Shown: positions 2,578-32,387, numbered from the stretch's first letter. The stretch is 64,000 bases of DNA from Acidimicrobiia bacterium (GCA_030431785.1 JAUIIM010000002.1:37927-101926); one strand, 5' to 3'. Numbers and translations: made by a program. Notes: generated from the letters alone by a model not told the origin.

Positions 2578-4077
2578 GTGACAGGACGACAGGCGTGGAC
2601 ACGACGGCTCACGATCGCTTCGTATGCGATCCACATCTTTGCGCTCGTCACCGCTGTCATCGCATCAGGTATCCCGAATGGCTTCGACGCATCAGCGATC
2701 ATCGGGGCTGCCATCGCATCGGTCGGGGTCGCCGTCTCGTTCCTCGCCCGACTCCCCTTCCCGACGCGCTCGACCCGCGAGGTCGTGGTGCTGGCTACCT
2801 CCGTCTCCACCTATTCGATCGCTTGCGGTCTGACGGGTGGATTCGCCAGCGCTTTTGCCATCCTCCCGGTCGCCACGATCTTCTTGGCAGCAATAGGTGC
2901 TGGCATGACCGCTGCACTCCCAACGGCTCTCCTGTCGATCCTCGGCGTCACCGTCGCATCCATGGCAGGCGGCGATGCGGAGCTGACCGGTTCGACCATT
3001 CGGATCTCTGCGTTCTACCTCCTCACCGCCCTGGCATTCGGAGAGGTGCGGAGAGCCTTGTTCGAGCAAACGACGAACCCCGATGCCGTCGCAGCAGCCG
3101 ATGCAAGTGAGACACGGCTCGCAAGTCTGGAGACGACGCACGAGCTGCTGGAGGGTTTGGTCCGTGTTGCCACGTCGCCGGACATCAATGCGGTCGCCTC
3201 CGCCCAGGATGCGATCCGCGACGCCCAGCTCATCGCACCGAGCGACGCTGCGATCCTCCGGACGAGGAACGGGACCGTATTGGCGCGACGCGGCGACCCG
3301 AACACTGCTACGCCGACCACCGTCATCATGACCGGTGGCGAAGACCTAGGGATCGAACTCACCCTGTGGCCCTCATCAGGAGCGATCACCGACGACCAGC
3401 GCGAGATGCTCGCCGATGCGCTCACCCCGGTCCAGCTTGCGATCGAGAACGACGAGATGGTCTCGACCCTTGCTGGCGTAGCCGTCCAACGGGAGCGGGT
3501 GCGCCTCGCTCGCGAACTCCACGACGACGTAGCCCCGAGCGTCGCAAGTGTGGGACTCACCCTCGACATGCTCATCGCTTCCGGGCAACTCGACTCCGAA
3601 CAGCAACGCAACATCGAGGCCACCCGGACGAACGTCACCCGGCTGGTGGATCGGATCCGGGCACAGGTGCAGGACCTCCGAGCCGACCGCTCTGGGTCCC
3701 TGACCGAGCATGCGCACTCCCTCGTCGCTGAAGTCGACGCCGACGGGCCAAGCGTGATCGTCAGTCTCGACGAACGGGTACCGCCCCGCCCTGCAGTCGC
3801 CGACGAGCTTCGGTCCATGATCACCGAGGCCTTCCGGAACGCCATCAACCATGCCGAGGCGACATCGATTCGGATCGAGGGCTCGATCGATGAAGACGGG
3901 GGCTCGGTACGGGTGATCGACAACGGACGAGGGTTCGACACCACGACACAGCCAACGGGCCACTTCGGGATCCCAGGCATGCAAGAGCGTGCGGGCCTGA
4001 TCGGTGCGACCATAGACGTCACGAGCAAGATCTCCGACGGTACGATCGTCGCAATCAACTGGAGGTACCCGGTTTGA
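2578..4077 (+). CDS. sensor histidine kinase, NarL/HisKA_3 type, multi-TM N-terminus
   Basis: ORF track. The first ~170 aa are hydrophobic. H-box ARELHDDVAPSV, N-box FRNAINHAEA, G-box DNGRGF, GIPGMQERA. GTG start, exact start uncertain. Confidence 0.85.
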   Translation: MTGRQAWTRRLTIASYAIHIFALVTAVIASGIPNGFDASAIIGAAIASVGVAVSFLARLPFPTRSTREVVVLATSVSTYSIACGLTGGFASAFAILPVATIFLAAIGAGMTAALPTALLSILGVTVASMAGGDAELTGSTIRISAFYLLTALAFGEVRRALFEQTTNPDAVAAADASETRLASLETTHELLEGLVRVATSPDINAVASAQDAIRDAQLIAPSDAAILRTRNGTVLARRGDPNTATPTTVIMTGGEDLGIELTLWPSSGAITDDQREMLADALTPVQLAIENDEMVSTLAGVAVQRERVRLARELHDDVAPSVASVGLTLDMLIASGQLDSEQQRNIEATRTNVTRLVDRIRAQVQDLRADRSGSLTEHAHSLVAEVDADGPSVIVSLDERVPPRPAVADELRSMITEAFRNAINHAEATSIRIEGSIDEDGGSVRVIDNGRGFDTTTQPTGHFGIPGMQERAGLIGATIDVTSKISDGTIVAINWRYPV

Positions 4078-13856: not shown

Positions 13857-13914
13857 GCCCCAGCGGCACGAGAGTCGTCCTTGCGGCGAAGCGCACGACG
13901 TCGTACCTTCGTCG

Positions 13915-13942
13915 TTTGTCCTTTGTCCTTTGTCCTTTGTCC
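13915..13942. repeat. perfect heptamer tandem repeat TTTGTCC x4 (GGACAAA on the rpsA sense strand)
   Basis: Four exact consecutive units read directly, 19 nt downstream of the polA stop. Confidence 0.95.
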
Positions 13943-13960
13943 TCTGTAGGCGCAGCCGGG

Positions 13961-16593: not shown

Positions 16594-16628
16594 ACTCAGT
16601 ACGCAGCACTCAGCACTCAGTACCGAGA
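16594..16628. repeat. heptamer tandem array ACTCAGY-type (5 units)
   Basis: ACTCAGT ACGCAGC ACTCAGC ACTCAGT ACCGAGA. Begins 12 nt upstream of the polA ATG. Confidence 0.9.
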
Positions 16629-16643
16629 ACGCAAGCGTCCGGC

Positions 16644-16688
16644 CGAGGCTCGAGGCTGTGTACTTTGTACTCAGTACTTCGTAGTCGC
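16644..16688. repeat. two further heptamer arrays (CGAGGCT x2; TACTNNG x4)
   Basis: CGAGGCT CGAGGCT at 16644-16657. TACTTTG TACTCAG TACTTCG TAGTCGC at 16661-16688. Confidence 0.85.
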
Positions 16689-16704
16689 TGAGCGAAGCTC
16701 AGCG
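16686..16704 (-). terminator. short hairpin directly after the tadG-like stop
   Basis: CGCTGAGC-GAA-GCTCAGCG (8-bp stem) ends 1 nt from the stop codon at 16705-16707. No U-tract. Confidence 0.35.
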
Positions 16705-23476: not shown

Positions 23477-24997
23477 CTAACGCAGGTCGCTGGACGCCTC
23501 GACGGCGGCCAGGACCGCTGCCGCCTTGTTCACGCACTCCTGGTACTCCGCGCCGGGATCGGAATCGACGACGACCCCCGCACCGGCTTGTACCCAAGCG
23601 GTGGTGCCGTCGACGACGCAGGTGCGCAATGCGATCGCTGTGTCGAGCGAACCGGAGAAGTCGACATATCCGACAGCACCGGCATACGGACCACGGGCAG
23701 TCGGCTCCAGCTCGTCGATGATCTCCATCGCCCGGACCTTGGGGGCACCACTGACCGTGCCGTGCGGGAACGTCGCCCTCAGGACGTCGATCGGTCCCTT
23801 CCCGGATGCGAGCTTGCCACTGACGCCACTCACGATGTGCATCACATGCGAATAGCGCTCGATCACCATGAGGTCGTCGACATGGACCGACCCATGCTCA
23901 CACACACGTCCGAGGTCGTTGCGTGCGAGATCGATGAGCATCGTGTGTTCGGCACGCTCTTTGGGATCGGCGAGGAGCTCTGCTTCCAATCGCTGGTCCT
24001 CTTCCTCGGTAGCGCCCCGCGGCCGCGTGCCAGCGATCGGACGCGAGTAGGCGATGCCGTCACGCACCCGGGACATGAGCTCCGGGGAGGAGCCGACGAT
24101 CGCCGTCGAGCCCGACTTGACCAAGAACATGAACGGGGACGGATTGACGAGCCGTAGGGCGCGGTACAGCGCAAACGAGTCGCCGTGGAAGTCCACCTCG
24201 AAACGGAGCGAGGGCACGATCTGGAACGCATCGCCAGCGATGATGTATTCGACCGCCCGTCTTACGGATCGCTCGAAGTCCTCCCTCGTCATATTCGCCT
24301 GAGCAACGGGGCGTGCGTCGAACTTCGGTCGTCCGGAGGCGACCGATCGCACCGGAGCCGCGAGTGCTTCACCTGCCGCCCGGAGTTCGGTCAGCGCCTG
24401 TTCGTAGTCCGACACGGGATCGCCCCCGACGAACACGTTGCGGAACAGCGTGATCGAATCTCTGAGCCGGTCGAACGCGGCAACGCCACCGGCGAACTGC
24501 CAGAGCATCTCGGGTAGACCACGGTCGTCGTGCGGCCGATCCGGCAGGTGCTCCACGTACCGCACTGCGTCGTACGCCAGGTAGCCGACAGCTCCCGAGT
24601 GGAGCGGGGGCACGGCGCCCGGAAGATTCATCTCGTCAGGCTCCGGCGTGGTGAACCGATCGAGAAGGTCCTCCAACACCTCGAGCGGATCCCCATCCGC
24701 TATCGGAATCGACGGATCGTCGACGCTGGCAGTTCCGTCGTGTGACGTCAGGGTGAACGCCGGATCCCAGCCGATGAACGACCAACGGGCCCAACGCTCC
24801 CCCCCTTCGACCGACTCGAGGAGAAACCCGTCGCCGTCCCCGACCAGCCGTTCATACACGGACACCGGCGTCAGGTGATCTGCGACGACCTCGATCGCGA
24901 CAGGGACCACGGCGAATCGCTCAGCAAGGGCGAGAAAGGCAGCATGGTCCAGCGAGGCATTCATGGAGTGGGACAGTAGTTCCCCGACATCCGACAT
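23477..24997 (-). CDS. trpE: anthranilate synthase component I
   Basis: LLESVEGGERWARWSFIG, GAVGYLAYD, IAGTRPRG, and C-terminal GGAVGYVDFSG..DTAIALRT. Start is ambiguous: the ATG at 24997 lies inside a heptamer repeat, and the ATG at 24964 (MNASLDH) is the alternative. Confidence 0.92.
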   Translation of the reverse strand: MSDVGELLSHSMNASLDHAAFLALAERFAVVPVAIEVVADHLTPVSVYERLVGDGDGFLLESVEGGERWARWSFIGWDPAFTLTSHDGTASVDDPSIPIADGDPLEVLEDLLDRFTTPEPDEMNLPGAVPPLHSGAVGYLAYDAVRYVEHLPDRPHDDRGLPEMLWQFAGGVAAFDRLRDSITLFRNVFVGGDPVSDYEQALTELRAAGEALAAPVRSVASGRPKFDARPVAQANMTREDFERSVRRAVEYIIAGDAFQIVPSLRFEVDFHGDSFALYRALRLVNPSPFMFLVKSGSTAIVGSSPELMSRVRDGIAYSRPIAGTRPRGATEEEDQRLEAELLADPKERAEHTMLIDLARNDLGRVCEHGSVHVDDLMVIERYSHVMHIVSGVSGKLASGKGPIDVLRATFPHGTVSGAPKVRAMEIIDELEPTARGPYAGAVGYVDFSGSLDTAIALRTCVVDGTTAWVQAGAGVVVDSDPGAEYQECVNKAAAVLAAVEASSDLR

Positions 24998-25007
24998 CCG
25001 ACATCCG
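24984..25007. repeat. heptamer repeat CCGACAT x3 (ATGTCGG on the trpE sense strand)
   Basis: Three exact units plus a partial fourth, read directly. Each unit carries an ATG on the trpE strand. Confidence 0.95.
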
Positions 25008-25030: not shown

Positions 25031-25777
25031 CTACACCTCGGCGAGGTCCTCGAGACCGAGACGGACGAGGAGTTCGGTGAACCAACTCGAGAGCTCGACG
25101 ATGTTGCCGGACACCATCAGCCAACCGAAGAACGCAAGCAGCAGACCGGACGCGACGGTGATCTGGGTGAGATAGCGCCTCACCCAATTGAAAGCAGAGA
25201 ACGCCTTGGCGAGGAGAAGTGAGGTGAGAAGGAATGGAATCCCGAGTCCGAGACTGTAGAAGAACAGCACGATCATGCCTTCTCCCACCGTGTCGCTACT
25301 GGCACCGAGCGCAAGCGCTGAGGCGAGGAACGGCCCGATGCACGGAGTCCAACCGAAGGCAAACGCGGCGCCCATGATCGGTGGTCCGAAGAGACCTAGA
25401 CGCGACGCCTTCGAGGATTCGATGCGTCGGTCCTTCAGGAGCGGCATCAGCCACGACGGAGTCCAGATGGCCGTCACCGCGATGAACACGCCCATGGCGA
25501 TGATCACCCAGCCGGCGATGACCGTGAAGATCGACTGGTTCAGGAACGAGGACAAGCTCGTCGCCGTCGCACCGAGCGAGACGAACACCAGGGTGAACCC
25601 GAGGACGAACAGTGCGGTGCGCCCGACCACGCGGCGCATGGACACCTCTCCCGACGACAGCTCGACCATGTCGTAGCCCGACATGAGGGAGATGTACCCG
25701 GGCAGCAACGGCAACACGCACGGCGACACGAACGATGCCGTACCGGCCAGCACGGCCGCGATGAGTGAGACTTCCAT
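25031..25777 (-). CDS. ccdA: cytochrome c biogenesis protein CcdA (DsbD-family thiol-disulfide transporter)
   Basis: MEVSLIAAVLAGTASFVSPCVLPLLPGYISL and second-half GWTPCIGPFL. The track ORF extends to 25975 through the repeat array, so I prefer the ATG at 25777. Confidence 0.88.
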   Translation of the reverse strand: MEVSLIAAVLAGTASFVSPCVLPLLPGYISLMSGYDMVELSSGEVSMRRVVGRTALFVLGFTLVFVSLGATATSLSSFLNQSIFTVIAGWVIIAMGVFIAVTAIWTPSWLMPLLKDRRIESSKASRLGLFGPPIMGAAFAFGWTPCIGPFLASALALGASSDTVGEGMIVLFFYSLGLGIPFLLTSLLLAKAFSAFNWVRRYLTQITVASGLLLAFFGWLMVSGNIVELSSWFTELLVRLGLEDLAEV

Positions 25778-25837
25778 GGATCCTGACCTGTTCGTCTTCC
25801 AATGCAACGTTACGACGACCGCTGTTGTTCCGGGATT

Positions 25838-26009
25838 GAGGGATAAAGAGACGAAGGGACAAAGGGACGAAGGGAACAAAGGACAAAGGACAAAGGAACA
25901 AGGGACGAAGGGAACAAGGGAAGAAAGGGAGACGGGGACACGGGGAACAAGGGAAGAAGGGAAGACGGGGAACAAGGCAACACGGGAATGGGAGGTGGGG
26001 CGATGGGGA
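25838..26009 (+). repeat. purine-rich ~8-nt tandem array (NNAAGGGA-type, ~20 units)
   Basis: Read directly: ..CGAAGGGA CAAAGGGA CGAAGGGA ACAAAGGA CAAAGGA CAAAGGA ACAAGGGA CGAAGGGA ACAAGGGA AGAAAGGGA GACGGGGA CACGGGGA ACAAGGGA AGAAGGGA AGACGGGGA... I count 17 runs of G3 or longer on the + strand. Confidence 0.95.
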
Positions 26010-26045
26010 TCCGGTGCTGGTCACAAAGAACGGGGGTGTGCTCGG

Positions 26046-27299
26046 ATGGGGTTACCCTGCAACGCCATGACCATGTCCCCCTACGGGCCGCACGTCGCGC
26101 CCACACAACGCGTGCCAGCCTCAGTGCGCCGAGTGATCTTCCTCACCGCACTCATCGGATTCGTCGCCGGATACGGTGCGAGCCAGATGTCCCACACCCT
26201 CCCGTTCGCCCGGAATTCTCTCGATCTCACCGAAGGTCAGATGAGCACCATCTTTGCCGGTGTACGCGCTGCATCACTCCTCGGCGTCGTGTTTGCGATC
26301 ATGGCGGACCGGATCGGACGGAGGAAGCCTCTCCTCGGTGCATTCGTCGTCTTGTGTTTCGGGAGTCTCGCCACCGCATTCATCCCGTCCGTGCCCGCCT
26401 ATGTCCTGGCACAGGCGTTCGTGCGAATCGCCGTCGTTGCGATCGCAGCGATTTCCATCGTGCTCATCGCCGAGGAGACCCCCGCAGGCAACCGGGCCAT
26501 CGCTCTCGGCATCTACGGTCTTGCCGGGTCTCTCGGCGTCGGCCTCGGCCTCGTCTTGCTGCCGATCGCCGAAGGAAGCGACGAGGCGTGGCGCATCCTG
26601 TTCGGGATCGCATCGCTCGGCCTCCTCATCGTTCCGCTGCTCGCACGATTCCTCCCTGAATCGAAGGCATTCGTGCCGGCTCCTCCGTTCCCGTTCCTGA
26701 AGGCACTCTCCATGGGACTCGGCAAGCACTTCTGGCCGTTGGCCGGTGTCGCGTTCTTCGTCGCTGCGTTCTCCAGCCCGGCGTTCGATTTTGTCCTCGA
26801 GCGCCTGATCAACGACCTCGCATGGGACACCGGGGCGGCACGCTTCCTCTTGATCGTGTTCTCCGGAGTCGGCACTGTTGGGCTCCTCGTCGGCGGGCGC
26901 CTGGCCGACCGCATCGGACGCCGACCGACCACCGCCATCGCCTTGGCGATAGGACTCGTCGGAGGCGTCGGGTTCTACCTGCTCGATTCGGGCTGGTTCC
27001 TCGCCATCTCGATCTTCCTCGCAACATTGGGGGCCACGATGCTCACGCCGTCGTTCGCAGCACAGAAGGCCGAGCTCTTCCCAACCCGACTCAGGTCGAC
27101 CGCCGGTGGATGGATCACGAACTCCGGCATCGTGGGTTCGATTGCGGGCTTCACGGTGGGCGGGATGATGATCGACCGATATGGGCTCGCCACGACGGTT
27201 GCGGCGCTCTCGCTCGGACTGCTCATCTCGATCTTCCTGAACCTCAGACTGCCGGAGACGAGGGGGATGGATCTCGTCCGGCGGCCAGAACCCCGTTGA
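26046..27299 (+). CDS. MFS transporter
   Basis: Twelve hydrophobic segments. The MFS loop signature occurs twice (IMADRIGRRKP and GGRLADRIGRRPT). The track ORF starts at 25683 through the repeat array. The real start is the ATG at 26046 or 26067. Confidence 0.85.
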   Translation: MGLPCNAMTMSPYGPHVAPTQRVPASVRRVIFLTALIGFVAGYGASQMSHTLPFARNSLDLTEGQMSTIFAGVRAASLLGVVFAIMADRIGRRKPLLGAFVVLCFGSLATAFIPSVPAYVLAQAFVRIAVVAIAAISIVLIAEETPAGNRAIALGIYGLAGSLGVGLGLVLLPIAEGSDEAWRILFGIASLGLLIVPLLARFLPESKAFVPAPPFPFLKALSMGLGKHFWPLAGVAFFVAAFSSPAFDFVLERLINDLAWDTGAARFLLIVFSGVGTVGLLVGGRLADRIGRRPTTAIALAIGLVGGVGFYLLDSGWFLAISIFLATLGATMLTPSFAAQKAELFPTRLRSTAGGWITNSGIVGSIAGFTVGGMMIDRYGLATTVAALSLGLLISIFLNLRLPETRGMDLVRRPEPR

Positions 27300-30216: not shown

Positions 30217-30480
30217 CTACCTGACGCGACTGCGCTCCATGCGCTGAAGCAGCCGGACACAGCCAGCGATCGCAAACCCGAGAGCGGTGGCGACGGCGAC
30301 GAGGATCAGCCCGAGTTCCAGAATCGCAAAGGGCGACGTGCTACACGTGCCGAGTCCGTCCGGACACAAACCGAGCCCGGAACCACCGAGGACCAGGTCG
30401 AACAGGGCGATCGCCGGGAGCGCCACCACGACGGCGAACGCCGCGATCAGTGCACCGAGAACGAACCGGATGGCGGTCAT
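30217..30480 (-). CDS. hypothetical small membrane protein (2 TM, Cys-containing loop)
   Basis: ORF track. MTAIRFVLGALIAAFAVVVALPAIALF..CPDGLGTC..ILELGLILVAVATALGFAIAG. Lies 12 nt upstream of the next membrane-protein gene. Confidence 0.5.
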   Translation of the reverse strand: MTAIRFVLGALIAAFAVVVALPAIALFDLVLGGSGLGLCPDGLGTCSTSPFAILELGLILVAVATALGFAIAGCVRLLQRMERSRVR

Positions 30481-30487
30481 GCGGGCA

Positions 30488-30612
30488 GGATAGGACGAGG
30501 ATCACGGGAGCAAGGGACAAAGGGACAAAAGGGACGAAGGGACAAAGGACAAGGGACGAAGGGACAAAGGGAGCAAGGGACAAAGGGACGAAGGGACGAA
30601 GGGACGAAGGGA
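30488..30612 (+). repeat. GGGACRAA-type octamer tandem array (~13 units)
   Basis: Read directly: CAAGGGA CAAAGGGA CAAAAGGGA CGAAGGGA CAAAGGA CAAGGGA CGAAGGGA CAAAGGGA GCAAGGGA CAAAGGGA CGAAGGGA CGAAGGGA CGAAGGGA. There are 13 G3 runs between 30506 and 30611. Confidence 0.95.
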
Positions 30613-30651
30613 TCGTGGATCATGGATCATGGATCATGGATCGTGGATGGA
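30610..30651 (+). repeat. GGATCRT heptamer tandem array (6 units, 5 GATC sites)
   Basis: GGATCGT GGATCAT GGATCAT GGATCAT GGATCGT GGATGGA, read directly. It abuts the octamer array. Confidence 0.95.
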
Positions 30652-30653
30652 TG

Positions 30654-30690
30654 TCCGACCATCCGACAATCCGACAATCCGATCATCCAA
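30654..30690 (+). repeat. TCCGAYMA octamer tandem array (4 units plus a partial unit)
   Basis: TCCGACCA TCCGACAA TCCGACAA TCCGATCA TCCAA, read directly. Confidence 0.9.
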
Positions 30691-30755: not shown

Positions 30756-32387
30756 ATGAACCCGTTCCACGTCGAATCGTTCACCGACGCCGAGGCCGCG
30801 ATCCTCAACCGCTACTTCACGAACCTCGACCAGCCCGTGTTCGGCATCACCGGCCTCCCCGAGGTCGTCAAGGGGGCGCTCTTCGCCCGATACAGCCGGT
30901 CGCCCAAGTCCGTCCGACGGCTCTTCCTCGACGAGTTCATCGAAGACGGTGAAACCGGGATCGCAGCCATCGCCGCCCACACCGGGGCGGGTGATCCGTT
31001 GGGGCGGGATCGGGCAGAGCGGCTGTATGACACCGTGTTCACCCAGTACGGGGACGACTCGGTCGCCCAGCTGGGCGGTGCCCACCTCGCCGTCGAGCAG
31101 GCATCGAACATCCTGACGAAGGTCCTGGAGTGGGGTCGCCTCGCTTCGTACCTCGAGCAATCGACCAGGTACATCTTCTACGACCAGCCCCTTGGTGGCC
31201 GATACCGGTATCACACCCCCGCGGAACTCACCGACGACGCACGAGCCACCTACACGCAACACATGGATCGGATGTTTGCGACGTACTCGGATGTCGTGGC
31301 TCGACTCGTCGCCTACTACGAGAAGCTGTACCCGAAGCACGACGGCGACTCTGCGTTCGTATGGCGGTCGACCATCCGAGCACGTGCCTGTGACGACGCA
31401 CGGGGCCTACTCCCAGCCTCGACACTCTCGAATGTCGGGATCTTCGCCTCCGGGCAGGCGTACGAAGCCTTGCTGCTACGGATGCGAGCCCATCCGCTCG
31501 CCGAGGTCCGCTGGTTCGGCGATCTCATGCTCGCCGAACTCCGCAAGCTGATCCCTTCGTTCATGAAGCGAGTGGACGTGCCGGATCGCGGCGGGGTCTG
31601 GTCGCACTACCTCGGCGACATCGACCGGTCGATGCGCGAACTCGCTGCATCCATCGAGATGGACCAGCCATCGGCACCGACCGTGCAACTGGTCGAGTTC
31701 GACCCGGAAGGCGAACGCAAGGTCGCTGCTGCTGCGTTGTATCGCTATTGCAGCGCGTCGGACGCCGTCATCCGCGATGCCGTCGCAAAAATGTCCGAGA
31801 CGGAAATCGATGAAATCTTCGATGCCTACGTCGGGAATCGGACGAACCGTCGACACAAGCCCGGACGTGGCATGGAACAGACCTTCTATCGCTTCGACAT
31901 CCTGTGCGACTACGGCATCTTTCGGGATCTCCAACGGCACCGGATGATGACGATCGAATGGCAACCGCTCTCCCCCGCCCACGGATACGTGACCCCACCG
32001 TCGATCGATGACATCGGGGCGACCGACACGTGGGACGAGGCGATGGCGGCGTCCGCCGATCTCTACGAGGCGATCAGCGCGGCAGCGTCGAGCGACCTTG
32101 CCCAGTATGTCGTCCCGTTCGCCCAGAACATCCGCTTCATCATGAATCTCAACGCTCGAGAAGCGTTCCACCTGATCGAGCTCCGCACGCAGCAGGGTGG
32201 ACACCCCGACTACCGACGCGTCTGCCAAGAGATGCATCGCCAGATCCGCGAGGTCGCAGGACACCAGCGGATTGCCGATGCGATGTCGTTCGTCGACTAC
32301 GACAACTACGACCTGGGCCGTCTGGAGACCGAACGGCGGGCTGCGGCCAAGCGGGCGGCCGCCGGTCTTGGCGATCCCTCAGCGTGA
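30756..32387 (+). CDS. ThyX-like (Thy1 domain) protein, long ~543-aa form
   Basis: ALFARYSRSPKS in the N-terminal half. FRDLQRHRMMT and HLIELRTQQGGHPDYRRV in the C-terminal half recall ThyX motifs. The track ORF starts at 30450 through the repeat arrays. I prefer the ATG at 30756 (MNPFHVESF). Confidence 0.7.
   Translation: MNPFHVESFTDAEAAILNRYFTNLDQPVFGITGLPEVVKGALFARYSRSPKSVRRLFLDEFIEDGETGIAAIAAHTGAGDPLGRDRAERLYDTVFTQYGDDSVAQLGGAHLAVEQASNILTKVLEWGRLASYLEQSTRYIFYDQPLGGRYRYHTPAELTDDARATYTQHMDRMFATYSDVVARLVAYYEKLYPKHDGDSAFVWRSTIRARACDDARGLLPASTLSNVGIFASGQAYEALLLRMRAHPLAEVRWFGDLMLAELRKLIPSFMKRVDVPDRGGVWSHYLGDIDRSMRELAASIEMDQPSAPTVQLVEFDPEGERKVAAAALYRYCSASDAVIRDAVAKMSETEIDEIFDAYVGNRTNRRHKPGRGMEQTFYRFDILCDYGIFRDLQRHRMMTIEWQPLSPAHGYVTPPSIDDIGATDTWDEAMAASADLYEAISAAASSDLAQYVVPFAQNIRFIMNLNAREAFHLIELRTQQGGHPDYRRVCQEMHRQIREVAGHQRIADAMSFVDYDNYDLGRLETERRAAAKRAAAGLGDPSA

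Follow-up and report, generated by a model that had tools for sequence, protein, structure and literature searches.

The spacer between ccdA and a divergently transcribed MFS transporter gene in an uncultured Acidimicrobiia bacterium contains a purine-rich tandem array of G-runs, which raises the question whether such an array is an element maintained by selection or a product of slippage. Here, the array is examined in a stretch of 64,000 nt (referred to as the window; coordinates are those of the window unless a contig is named) and at the corresponding sites of related genomes. Array 1, as it is termed below, is probably a slippage-generated, lineage-specific expansion of the spacer between two back-to-back promoters, with effects that are at most incidental and quantitative; a role as a conserved regulatory element is not supported.

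Architecture of the array

Array 1 (25838..26009, + strand), described by means of Tandem Repeats Finder, G-run counts and shuffles, comprises about 22 units of the octamer AAGGGACR and its variants of 7-9 nt. The composition of the + strand (A72 C19 G77 T4) amounts to 87% purine. G-runs of at least three nucleotides number exactly 17 on this strand, and C-runs of that length are absent. The sequence-only reading had described an array of about 170 nt whose + strand has 17 G-runs and whose minus strand has essentially none, built from some 20 copies with drifting variants; its description of the repeat is borne out. Tandem Repeats Finder assigns a period of 8 (15.6 copies at 25839-25962 and 16.9 copies at 25854-25988, with 74-76% matches) as well as higher-order periods of 16, 25, 33 and 38, which indicate block duplications. 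When the array is cut after every G-run, 22 units result: eleven of 8 nt, three of 7 nt and three of 9 nt, the rest being degenerate ends. The periodic core extends from 25839 to 25988 and is followed at the 3' end by a tail of degenerate, G-rich sequence, the final ~20 nt of which (GGGAATGGGAGGTGGGGCGATGGGGA) lack periodicity, and one extra degenerate unit (GGGATTGA, 25832-25839) is found on the left.

The tandem structure is far above chance. The 17 G-runs compare with 8.4 ± 1.8 in shuffles of the array's own composition (maximum 15, n = 2000) and with an average of 2.2 per 172-nt window across the 64 kb. The two-unit pattern AAGGGACRAAGGGAC, with up to two mismatches allowed, matches 15 times in the window versus 0.22 times expected, and all 15 matches fall within array 1 or a second array at 30.5 kb (array 2). 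As a head-to-tail array of a 5-11-nt unit that is longer than expected by chance, array 1 has the defining features of a long simple-sequence repeat.

Array 1 is non-coding: it lies between the true starts of ccdA (25031..25777, - strand; 248 aa, DsbD_TM family; start at 25777) and of the MFS gene (26067..27299, + strand; 410 aa, MFS_1; start at 26067), the basis being Pfam, homologues and conserved promoter motifs. The matches to DsbD_TM/CcdA on the - strand and to MFS_1 on the + strand agree with the earlier identification of the divergent neighbours. Because array 1 is free of stop codons, the open reading frames called by the ORF tool cross it uninterrupted from either side, running on from ccdA to 25975 (25031..25975, - strand) and back from the MFS gene to 25683 (25683..27299, + strand); the false N-terminal extensions of both neighbours, which had been suspected before, are real. 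A further short repeat, CCGACAT x3.4 between the ccdA stop and the trpE start (24984-25007), provides the ATG (24997) that the ORF tool takes for the start of trpE, likely a false one. Arrays of this kind hence mislead ORF tracks in two ways, by spurious N-terminal extensions and by spurious start codons.

Promoters of the spacer

The positions of the two promoters follow from motifs conserved in relatives. The putative ccdA promoter (25805..25831, - strand) is of the ECF-sigma type and consists of GGAAC (25831-25827), a gap of 17 nt and CGTTG. The motif GGAAC-N17/18-CGTT(G), presumably the ECF sigma consensus of the SigH/SigR/SigE type, precedes the ccdA start by 27-67 nt at 56 of 63 loci, namely in the window and in 55 relatives, and its conservation suggests that ccdA may be part of a thiol or envelope stress regulon across the clade. 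For the MFS gene, the candidate promoter element is the -10-like hexamer TACCCT (26053..26058, + strand), an instance of G(G)TAnnCT, which is conserved in nearly all relatives. The hexamer is located 43 nt beyond the end of array 1 and only 8 nt before the MFS ATG, a spacing that would leave the MFS mRNA leaderless or nearly so. In relatives, the distance between box and start of the MFS gene is about 25-40 nt; an 87-aa ORF at 30480 and several array-adjoining genes of relatives also look leaderless.

Array 1 starts 6 nt from the ccdA -35 element (25827-25831), upstream of it, and thus lies between back-to-back ccdA and MFS promoters, in accord with the divergent promoter region to which it had been assigned. 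The gap between the ccdA -35 and the MFS -10 element has a median of 26 nt in relatives (range 9-233, n = 54) versus 221 nt in the window, because array 1, which contributes 172 nt of these, sits between the two promoters. As it is upstream of both core promoters, the array is probably outside both mRNAs and part of neither the ccdA nor the MFS 5' UTR. On its + strand it contains five GGAAC pentamers, the same pentamer as in the neighbouring ECF-type -35 element on the other strand; none of them is followed by CGTT, and array 2 contains no GGAAC. The five pentamers may be coincidence or decoy sites.

This arrangement bears on two functional readings. A phase-variation repeat is rejected, the array being neither in a reading frame nor between -35 and -10 elements; its position upstream of the ccdA -35 and the MFS -10/-35 elements excludes classical on/off switching. 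A gentler variant is that gain or loss of units alters the distance or the upstream contacts of both promoters and thereby tunes expression heritably, as in the case of the octanucleotide VNTR ACAGATAC (x2-20) between clbR and clbB in the colibactin island (PMC7364221). This 8-bp tandem repeat is likewise situated between divergently transcribed genes, and 5 versus 20 units change expression about 2-fold (PMC7364221); moreover, array 1 abuts the ccdA -35 element at a distance of 6 nt. The clbR-clbB repeat, however, is strain-polymorphic and located inside the clbR 5' UTR, where its 2-fold effect was measured, whereas array 1 appears upstream of both promoters, and its imperfect units (74-76% matches) would lower the slippage rate. 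In addition, Logan contigs of the same organism from three runs (SRR24075711-13; L001, L201-L203, L234-L235) are identical to the window over the stretches compared, also where they overlap the arrays; they break inside the arrays, however, all seven retrieved contigs having an end in array 1, 2 or 3. Expression tuning by unit number is quite improbable here. The contig ends also illustrate that such arrays break short-read assemblies and thereby hide their own copy number.

The second functional reading places the array in a transcript, as a purine-rich 5' leader or small RNA whose Shine-Dalgarno-like AAGGGA/AAAGGA sequences would serve as a ribosome standby site or as a CsrB/RsmZ-like sponge. 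In its favour, the units are similar to the ribosome-binding site that the organism itself uses before rpsA (AAGGAG), the MFS gene has the G-rich strand as its sense strand, and a third array (array 3, see below), in the 3' region of polA, is probably transcribed. Against this, the conserved MFS -10 box is downstream of array 1, 8 nt before the ATG, and the array is absent from relatives. CsrB-type RNAs show GGA motifs in hairpin loops, but RNA folding of the array 1 region was no better than that of shuffles on both strands (z +0.49 and +0.16). Rfam yielded a single tRNA in the whole window at gathering thresholds and no match in 25650-26200 at E ≤ 1. A promoter or terminator inside or bracketing array 1 was not found either, in a consensus scan that covered the sigma-70 type only and missed the ECF-type and TAnnCT motifs. 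A sponge RNA of the CsrB/RsmZ type was rejected on these grounds (neither promoter nor terminator of its own found, no Rfam match, z +0.49), and a transcribed element of any of the kinds named is very unlikely.

Sister arrays in the window

A scan of the 64 kb for purine- or pyrimidine-rich sequence revealed only four extreme stretches: array 1, 30503-30615, 13906-13945 (pyrimidine-rich on the + strand) and a 9-nt repeat at 56.7 kb (GAAGAGGAA x2.9). The second of these contains array 2 (30512..30612, + strand), in which AAGGGACR is repeated 12.8 times with 85% matches, corresponding to 14 units by G-run cutting. Its neighbours are the 87-aa membrane ORF (- strand, ATG at 30480, leaderless type) and a divergent thyX-like gene (+ strand, ATG at 30756). 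The third contains array 3 (13906..13947, - strand), a heptamer version of the repeat, ACAAAGG x6, which begins 13 nt past the polA stop, with the rpsA start some 200 nt further on. The same unit family therefore occupies three intergenic loci within the window: the kinship with the 30.5-kb array that had been proposed holds, the unit being common to both, and is extended by the heptamer array at 13.9 kb, which the sequence-only reading did not contain. An origin of the three arrays by segmental duplication is ruled out, since their flanks are unrelated and the arrays are accordingly not copies of one larger segment.

Shorter repeats accompany the three arrays. Two of them abut array 2 (30610..30682, + strand): GGATCRT x5.6, followed by TCCGACAA x3.6. 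The former creates five GATC sites exactly 7 bp apart, and a Phycisphaerae genome (L021, L028) has similar composites, in which a purine-rich octamer array precedes CCGCAAT/CGTCAAT heptamers. Other short intergenic heptamer or octamer arrays in the window are CCGACAT between ccdA and trpE, ACTCAGY and GTACTYN before polA, and CGACGAA-type units before rpsA; the repeats upstream of polA (ACTCAGY x3.9 plus GTACTYN repeats) are located at 16594-16690. The thyX-like gene (30756-32387), whose adjacency to the 87-aa ORF is kept in relatives, encodes 543 aa with two matched Thy1 stretches; the protein, about twice the length of the 191-residue Thy1 Pfam model, looks longer than single-domain ThyX.

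The array in relatives

The best non-self matches of the MFS protein are from Acidimicrobiia metagenome-assembled genomes and reach at most 83% identity. A profile scan of metagenome contigs yielded 80 loci, in 64 of which ccdA is upstream of and divergent from the MFS gene. None of the relatives with this synteny (about 60) has a purine-rich array in the ccdA-MFS spacer, and neither do the two with 79% MFS identity and complete intergenic regions (L199, L200). The contig of the closest relative (GCA_020439145.1, 83%) begins 16 nt before the MFS ATG and does not cover the rest of the spacer. Three relatives nevertheless have repeats of their own in the spacer: CACAGAC x4 plus CCCGGAC x6 in L120 (855-934), GTCCGTC x4.4 plus GGTCTGT x3 in L121 (68-137) and a degenerate purine-rich stretch in L141 (~3894-3931).

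The sites of the sister arrays present the same picture. The spacer between the gene for the 87-aa protein and thyX contains no array in about 12 relatives examined, nor in L199 and L200; it is ~100 bp long with a conserved promoter in 7 of 12 relatives and longer in the other five, L199 and L200. In L205, the polA-rpsA spacer has a repeat of its own, CTCAACG x4, at the corresponding position directly behind the polA stop; in L206 it has none. The change of repeat at one site between relatives that is seen for array 1 thus applies likewise to arrays 2 and 3: repeat-bearing sites recur between lineages, the unit sequence does not. The claim that the arrays represent a selected element rather than slippage is not supported, given that all three are absent from relatives with the same synteny and that unrelated units are found at the same sites. 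The sequence-only reading had itself named absence from close relatives of otherwise identical synteny as evidence against its proposal, and because syntenic relatives without the arrays exist, this evidence applies to all three.

DNA structure and protein binding

Four or more G3+ tracts with short loops, the sequence criterion for quadruplex formation, are present in arrays 1 and 2. Array 1 has three canonical G3+N1-7 motifs and a mean G4Hunter score of 1.16, with sub-windows of 1.5 or above, and array 2 has 12 G-runs, three motifs and a score of 1.05. Negative supercoiling accumulates between divergent promoters according to the twin-domain model, and both arrays are situated between such promoters. 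Upon underwinding of the spacer by divergent transcription, the G-rich strand could fold into G-quadruplexes, with an i-motif or an open strand opposite, and the array would act as a supercoil sink, an insulator or a modulator of one or both promoters. The 17 G-runs and three motifs of array 1, the 12 and three of array 2 and the in vitro folding of comparable G-rich heptamer repeats into quadruplexes (PMC4692102) favour such non-B DNA. Array 3, on the other hand, has GG runs only, a G4Hunter score of 0.38 and no quadruplex motif, the heptamers of relatives at the same sites lack G-runs altogether, and the array is not conserved in relatives. Since array 3 and the heptamers of relatives are without quadruplex potential, this potential is not the property that recurs. 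The published quadruplex-type repeats, moreover, prefer four units, as opposed to 12-22 here, and are under-represented between divergent ORFs (PMC4692102). Overall, a function through non-B DNA is unlikely. H-DNA formed by a homopurine mirror repeat is rejected, the tract of array 1 being interrupted by C about every 8 nt (19 C, 4 T).

The recurrence of one core at three loci in 64 kb could alternatively reflect a landing platform for a lineage-specific DNA- or RNA-binding protein that recognizes AAGG(G)AC, the arrays forming a regulon-like network or a set of sites for a nucleoid protein. A conserved core combined with variable spacer positions (R at position 8 of the octamer; TCCGC-NN and ACTTG-NN in relatives) does resemble binding sites, and protein binding has likewise been put forward, as an idea only, in the cases of TAACTGA (PMC4679880) and of the Geobacter elements with 7- and 8-nt units (PMC2700814). 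The neighbours of the three arrays, however, have no common theme (ccdA, MFS, thyX, rpsA, polA), array lengths are very uneven (42-172 nt), one and the same site carries different units in different relatives, and no candidate protein was identified. A shared binding protein is consequently an improbable explanation of the arrays.

Repeats in the clade and in other phyla

Within the clade, tandem repeats are frequent and have a preferred period. Of the 25 tandem arrays of 3.5 copies or more in 451 kb of sequence from Acidimicrobiia relatives (L118-L197), 20 have period 7, and many different units are represented (GAGGTCT, TCCGCNN x24, TACTTGN, GACTTGC, AACTGGC, GAGCTAT, GGCTGAC, CAACCAG and others); the array of 24 TCCGCNN copies is located at 7241-7407 of L128. 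The arrays are often composite and often begin 16-30 nt from the start codon of a divergent gene of the leaderless type. Orthologous TACTTGN arrays vary both in copy number (5.7-7.9) and at one position of the unit. According to crude gene calls, 10 of 20 classifiable arrays are in divergent, 9 in co-directional and 1 in convergent spacers, with 31%, 48% and 21% expected from intergenic length, a weak trend in favour of promoter-bearing spacers. A GC3-based gene caller, which mis-called rpsA and ccdA, was set aside.

Beyond the clade, a three-unit pattern of the octamer matches at least 116 stretches in species-representative GTDB genomes, and the matches listed are mostly from Phycisphaerae, Desulfobacteraceae, Acidobacteriota and Bacteroidota. 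A cross-phylum conserved element, by common ancestry or by function, is rejected by a control in viral contigs: four composition-matched scrambled octamers were found at 9, 4, 2 and 4 loci versus 7 for AAGGGACR. As scrambled octamers are equally frequent there, the sharing of the unit across phyla needs no special explanation.

The same survey bears on the claim of an orientation logic, by which the G-rich strand is the sense strand of the + gene. In a divergent spacer either strand is sense to one of the neighbours, so that the orientation of arrays 1 and 2 is uninformative and only array 3 is informative. Among the 73 listed GGGAC-type arrays of other phyla with two callable neighbours, there is neither an orientation bias nor a promoter-side bias (++ 24, -- 16, -+ 16, +- 17; crude longest-ORF gene calls). 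The proposed logic thus reduces to an automatic consequence of the divergent setting. In Phycisphaerae and other phyla, many of the GGGAC octamer arrays have an inverted copy no more than a few tens of nucleotides further on (L033, L045, L047, L081, L087, L117, L014, L043), and array and inverted copy together could form a very long hairpin; nothing comparable to such an inverted copy exists in the 64-kb window.

Comparison with known repeat systems

Among the long simple-sequence repeats of most bacterial genomes, and of large, high-G+C ones in particular, those with heptanucleotide units are the most abundant, and polymerase slippage has been put forward as their cause (Mrazek 2007, as summarized in PMC4679880 and PMC4692102). 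Array 1 belongs to this class of repeats with 5-11-nt units, which includes quadruplex-capable G-rich ones. As far as these two summaries of the survey go, the likeness consists in the dominance of heptamers (20 of 25 arrays in relatives), the high-G+C, non-pathogenic genomes, the intergenic location and the presence of several unit families per genome, whereas the differences are a main unit of 8 nt, the long and degenerate arrays and a lineage outside that survey. The STRR heptamers of cyanobacteria, reportedly described by Mazel in 1990, are said to fall within the same class.

The closest parallels are the dispersed G-rich heptamers GGGAATC of Xanthomonas and GGGGA(C/T)T of Nostoc, which form quadruplexes in vitro (Rehm et al. 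2015; PMC4692102). No function is known for these heptamers, and at a given intergenic site they differ from one close relative to the next (PMC4692102). The arrays described here share with them head-to-tail units of 7-8 nt, one G-run per unit, the quadruplex motif, neighbours without a functional theme, and differences in length and sequence between relatives at the same intergenic site. In contrast, the main unit here is an octamer of another sequence in an Acidimicrobiia host, and arrays comprise 12-22 units (22 and 14 by cutting) instead of the preferred four. Both G-rich arrays of the window are located between divergent ORFs, a position that is under-represented in the genomes studied by Rehm et al. 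Furthermore, their repeats are mostly transcribed whereas array 1 is probably not, and one family member here has GG runs only. Their heptamers occur at many dispersed non-coding loci per genome with 2-26 units each, compared to three loci in 64 kb here.

Two other systems have units of similar size at many loci. The TAACTGA heptamer occurs as dispersed direct repeats in marine Beggiatoaceae (MacGregor 2015; PMC4679880), and, like the unit described here, it is dispersed over intergenic regions of a genome (many in Beggiatoaceae, three in the 64 kb here), is common to several phyla and is found near ribosomal-protein genes, among others. TAACTGA repeats, however, comprise 2-6 copies in fixed orientation a few nucleotides from start codons, suggesting a translational role, while the arrays described here have 6-22 copies, are upstream of promoters and follow no orientation rule. 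Geobacter metallireducens harbours multicopy tandem elements, GGACCGG x4 at 49 loci and GTTGCTYN x4 at 48 sites (PMC2700814). These, too, are short tandem arrays of 7-8-nt units; they recur at tens of loci, are unique to one species of the genus and have a function that is only guessed, but they have a fixed number of 3-5 units and often form paired sites on opposite strands, as opposed to the long, variable and unpaired arrays of the window.

Origin of the array and implications

Slippage probably accounts for array 1 in the following manner: within a short promoter spacer, and after the split from the available relatives (at most 83% protein identity), replication slippage together with unequal exchange of one-unit and multi-unit blocks would have expanded an octamer AAGGGACR, whose slipping G- and A-runs would give rise to the 7- and 9-nt variants. 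The unit family was seeded at three or more intergenic sites of the genome, as is typical for such families in other bacteria, and the clade as a whole is rich in tandem heptamers with a fast turnover of the unit sequence. Array 1 would then be carried as mostly untranscribed spacer DNA. Its only certain effect is the move of the promoters from a few tens of bp to ~220 bp apart; if expression is affected at all, the change is likely a quantitative and incidental one.

Three observations count against this account or sit uneasily with it. Independent slippage alone does not predict one core at three loci in 64 kb, which calls for a dispersal process or a sequence-specific factor. Array 1, though degenerate (74-76% matches), is nearly free of T (4 of 172) and has one G-run per unit, which could indicate constraint. 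Finally, the strong dominance of period 7 in the clade is without a proven mechanism. These puzzles (common core, T-poverty, period 7) are general to the repeat class and not peculiar to the locus.

A reading that would assign them a meaning is that AAGG(G)AC arrays are a lineage-specific cis-acting insulator, quadruplex-forming or factor-bound, which was recruited to uncouple promoters that are a median of 26 bp apart in relatives. This is distinctly unlikely; if it were true, the repeated colonisation of promoter spacers by different heptamers would be a matter of selection and not of mere tolerance. With array 1 as a probable product of slippage, the ccdA-MFS locus reveals no new regulatory system. 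It is a natural example of a promoter pair whose spacing, a median of 26 bp in relatives, has grown to 221 bp, and it places uncultured marine-type Acidimicrobiia, with their fast-turnover tandem heptamers and octamers just upstream of core promoters, among the bacteria in which such repeats occur, extending the phenomenon from Xanthomonas, cyanobacteria, Geobacter and Beggiatoaceae.
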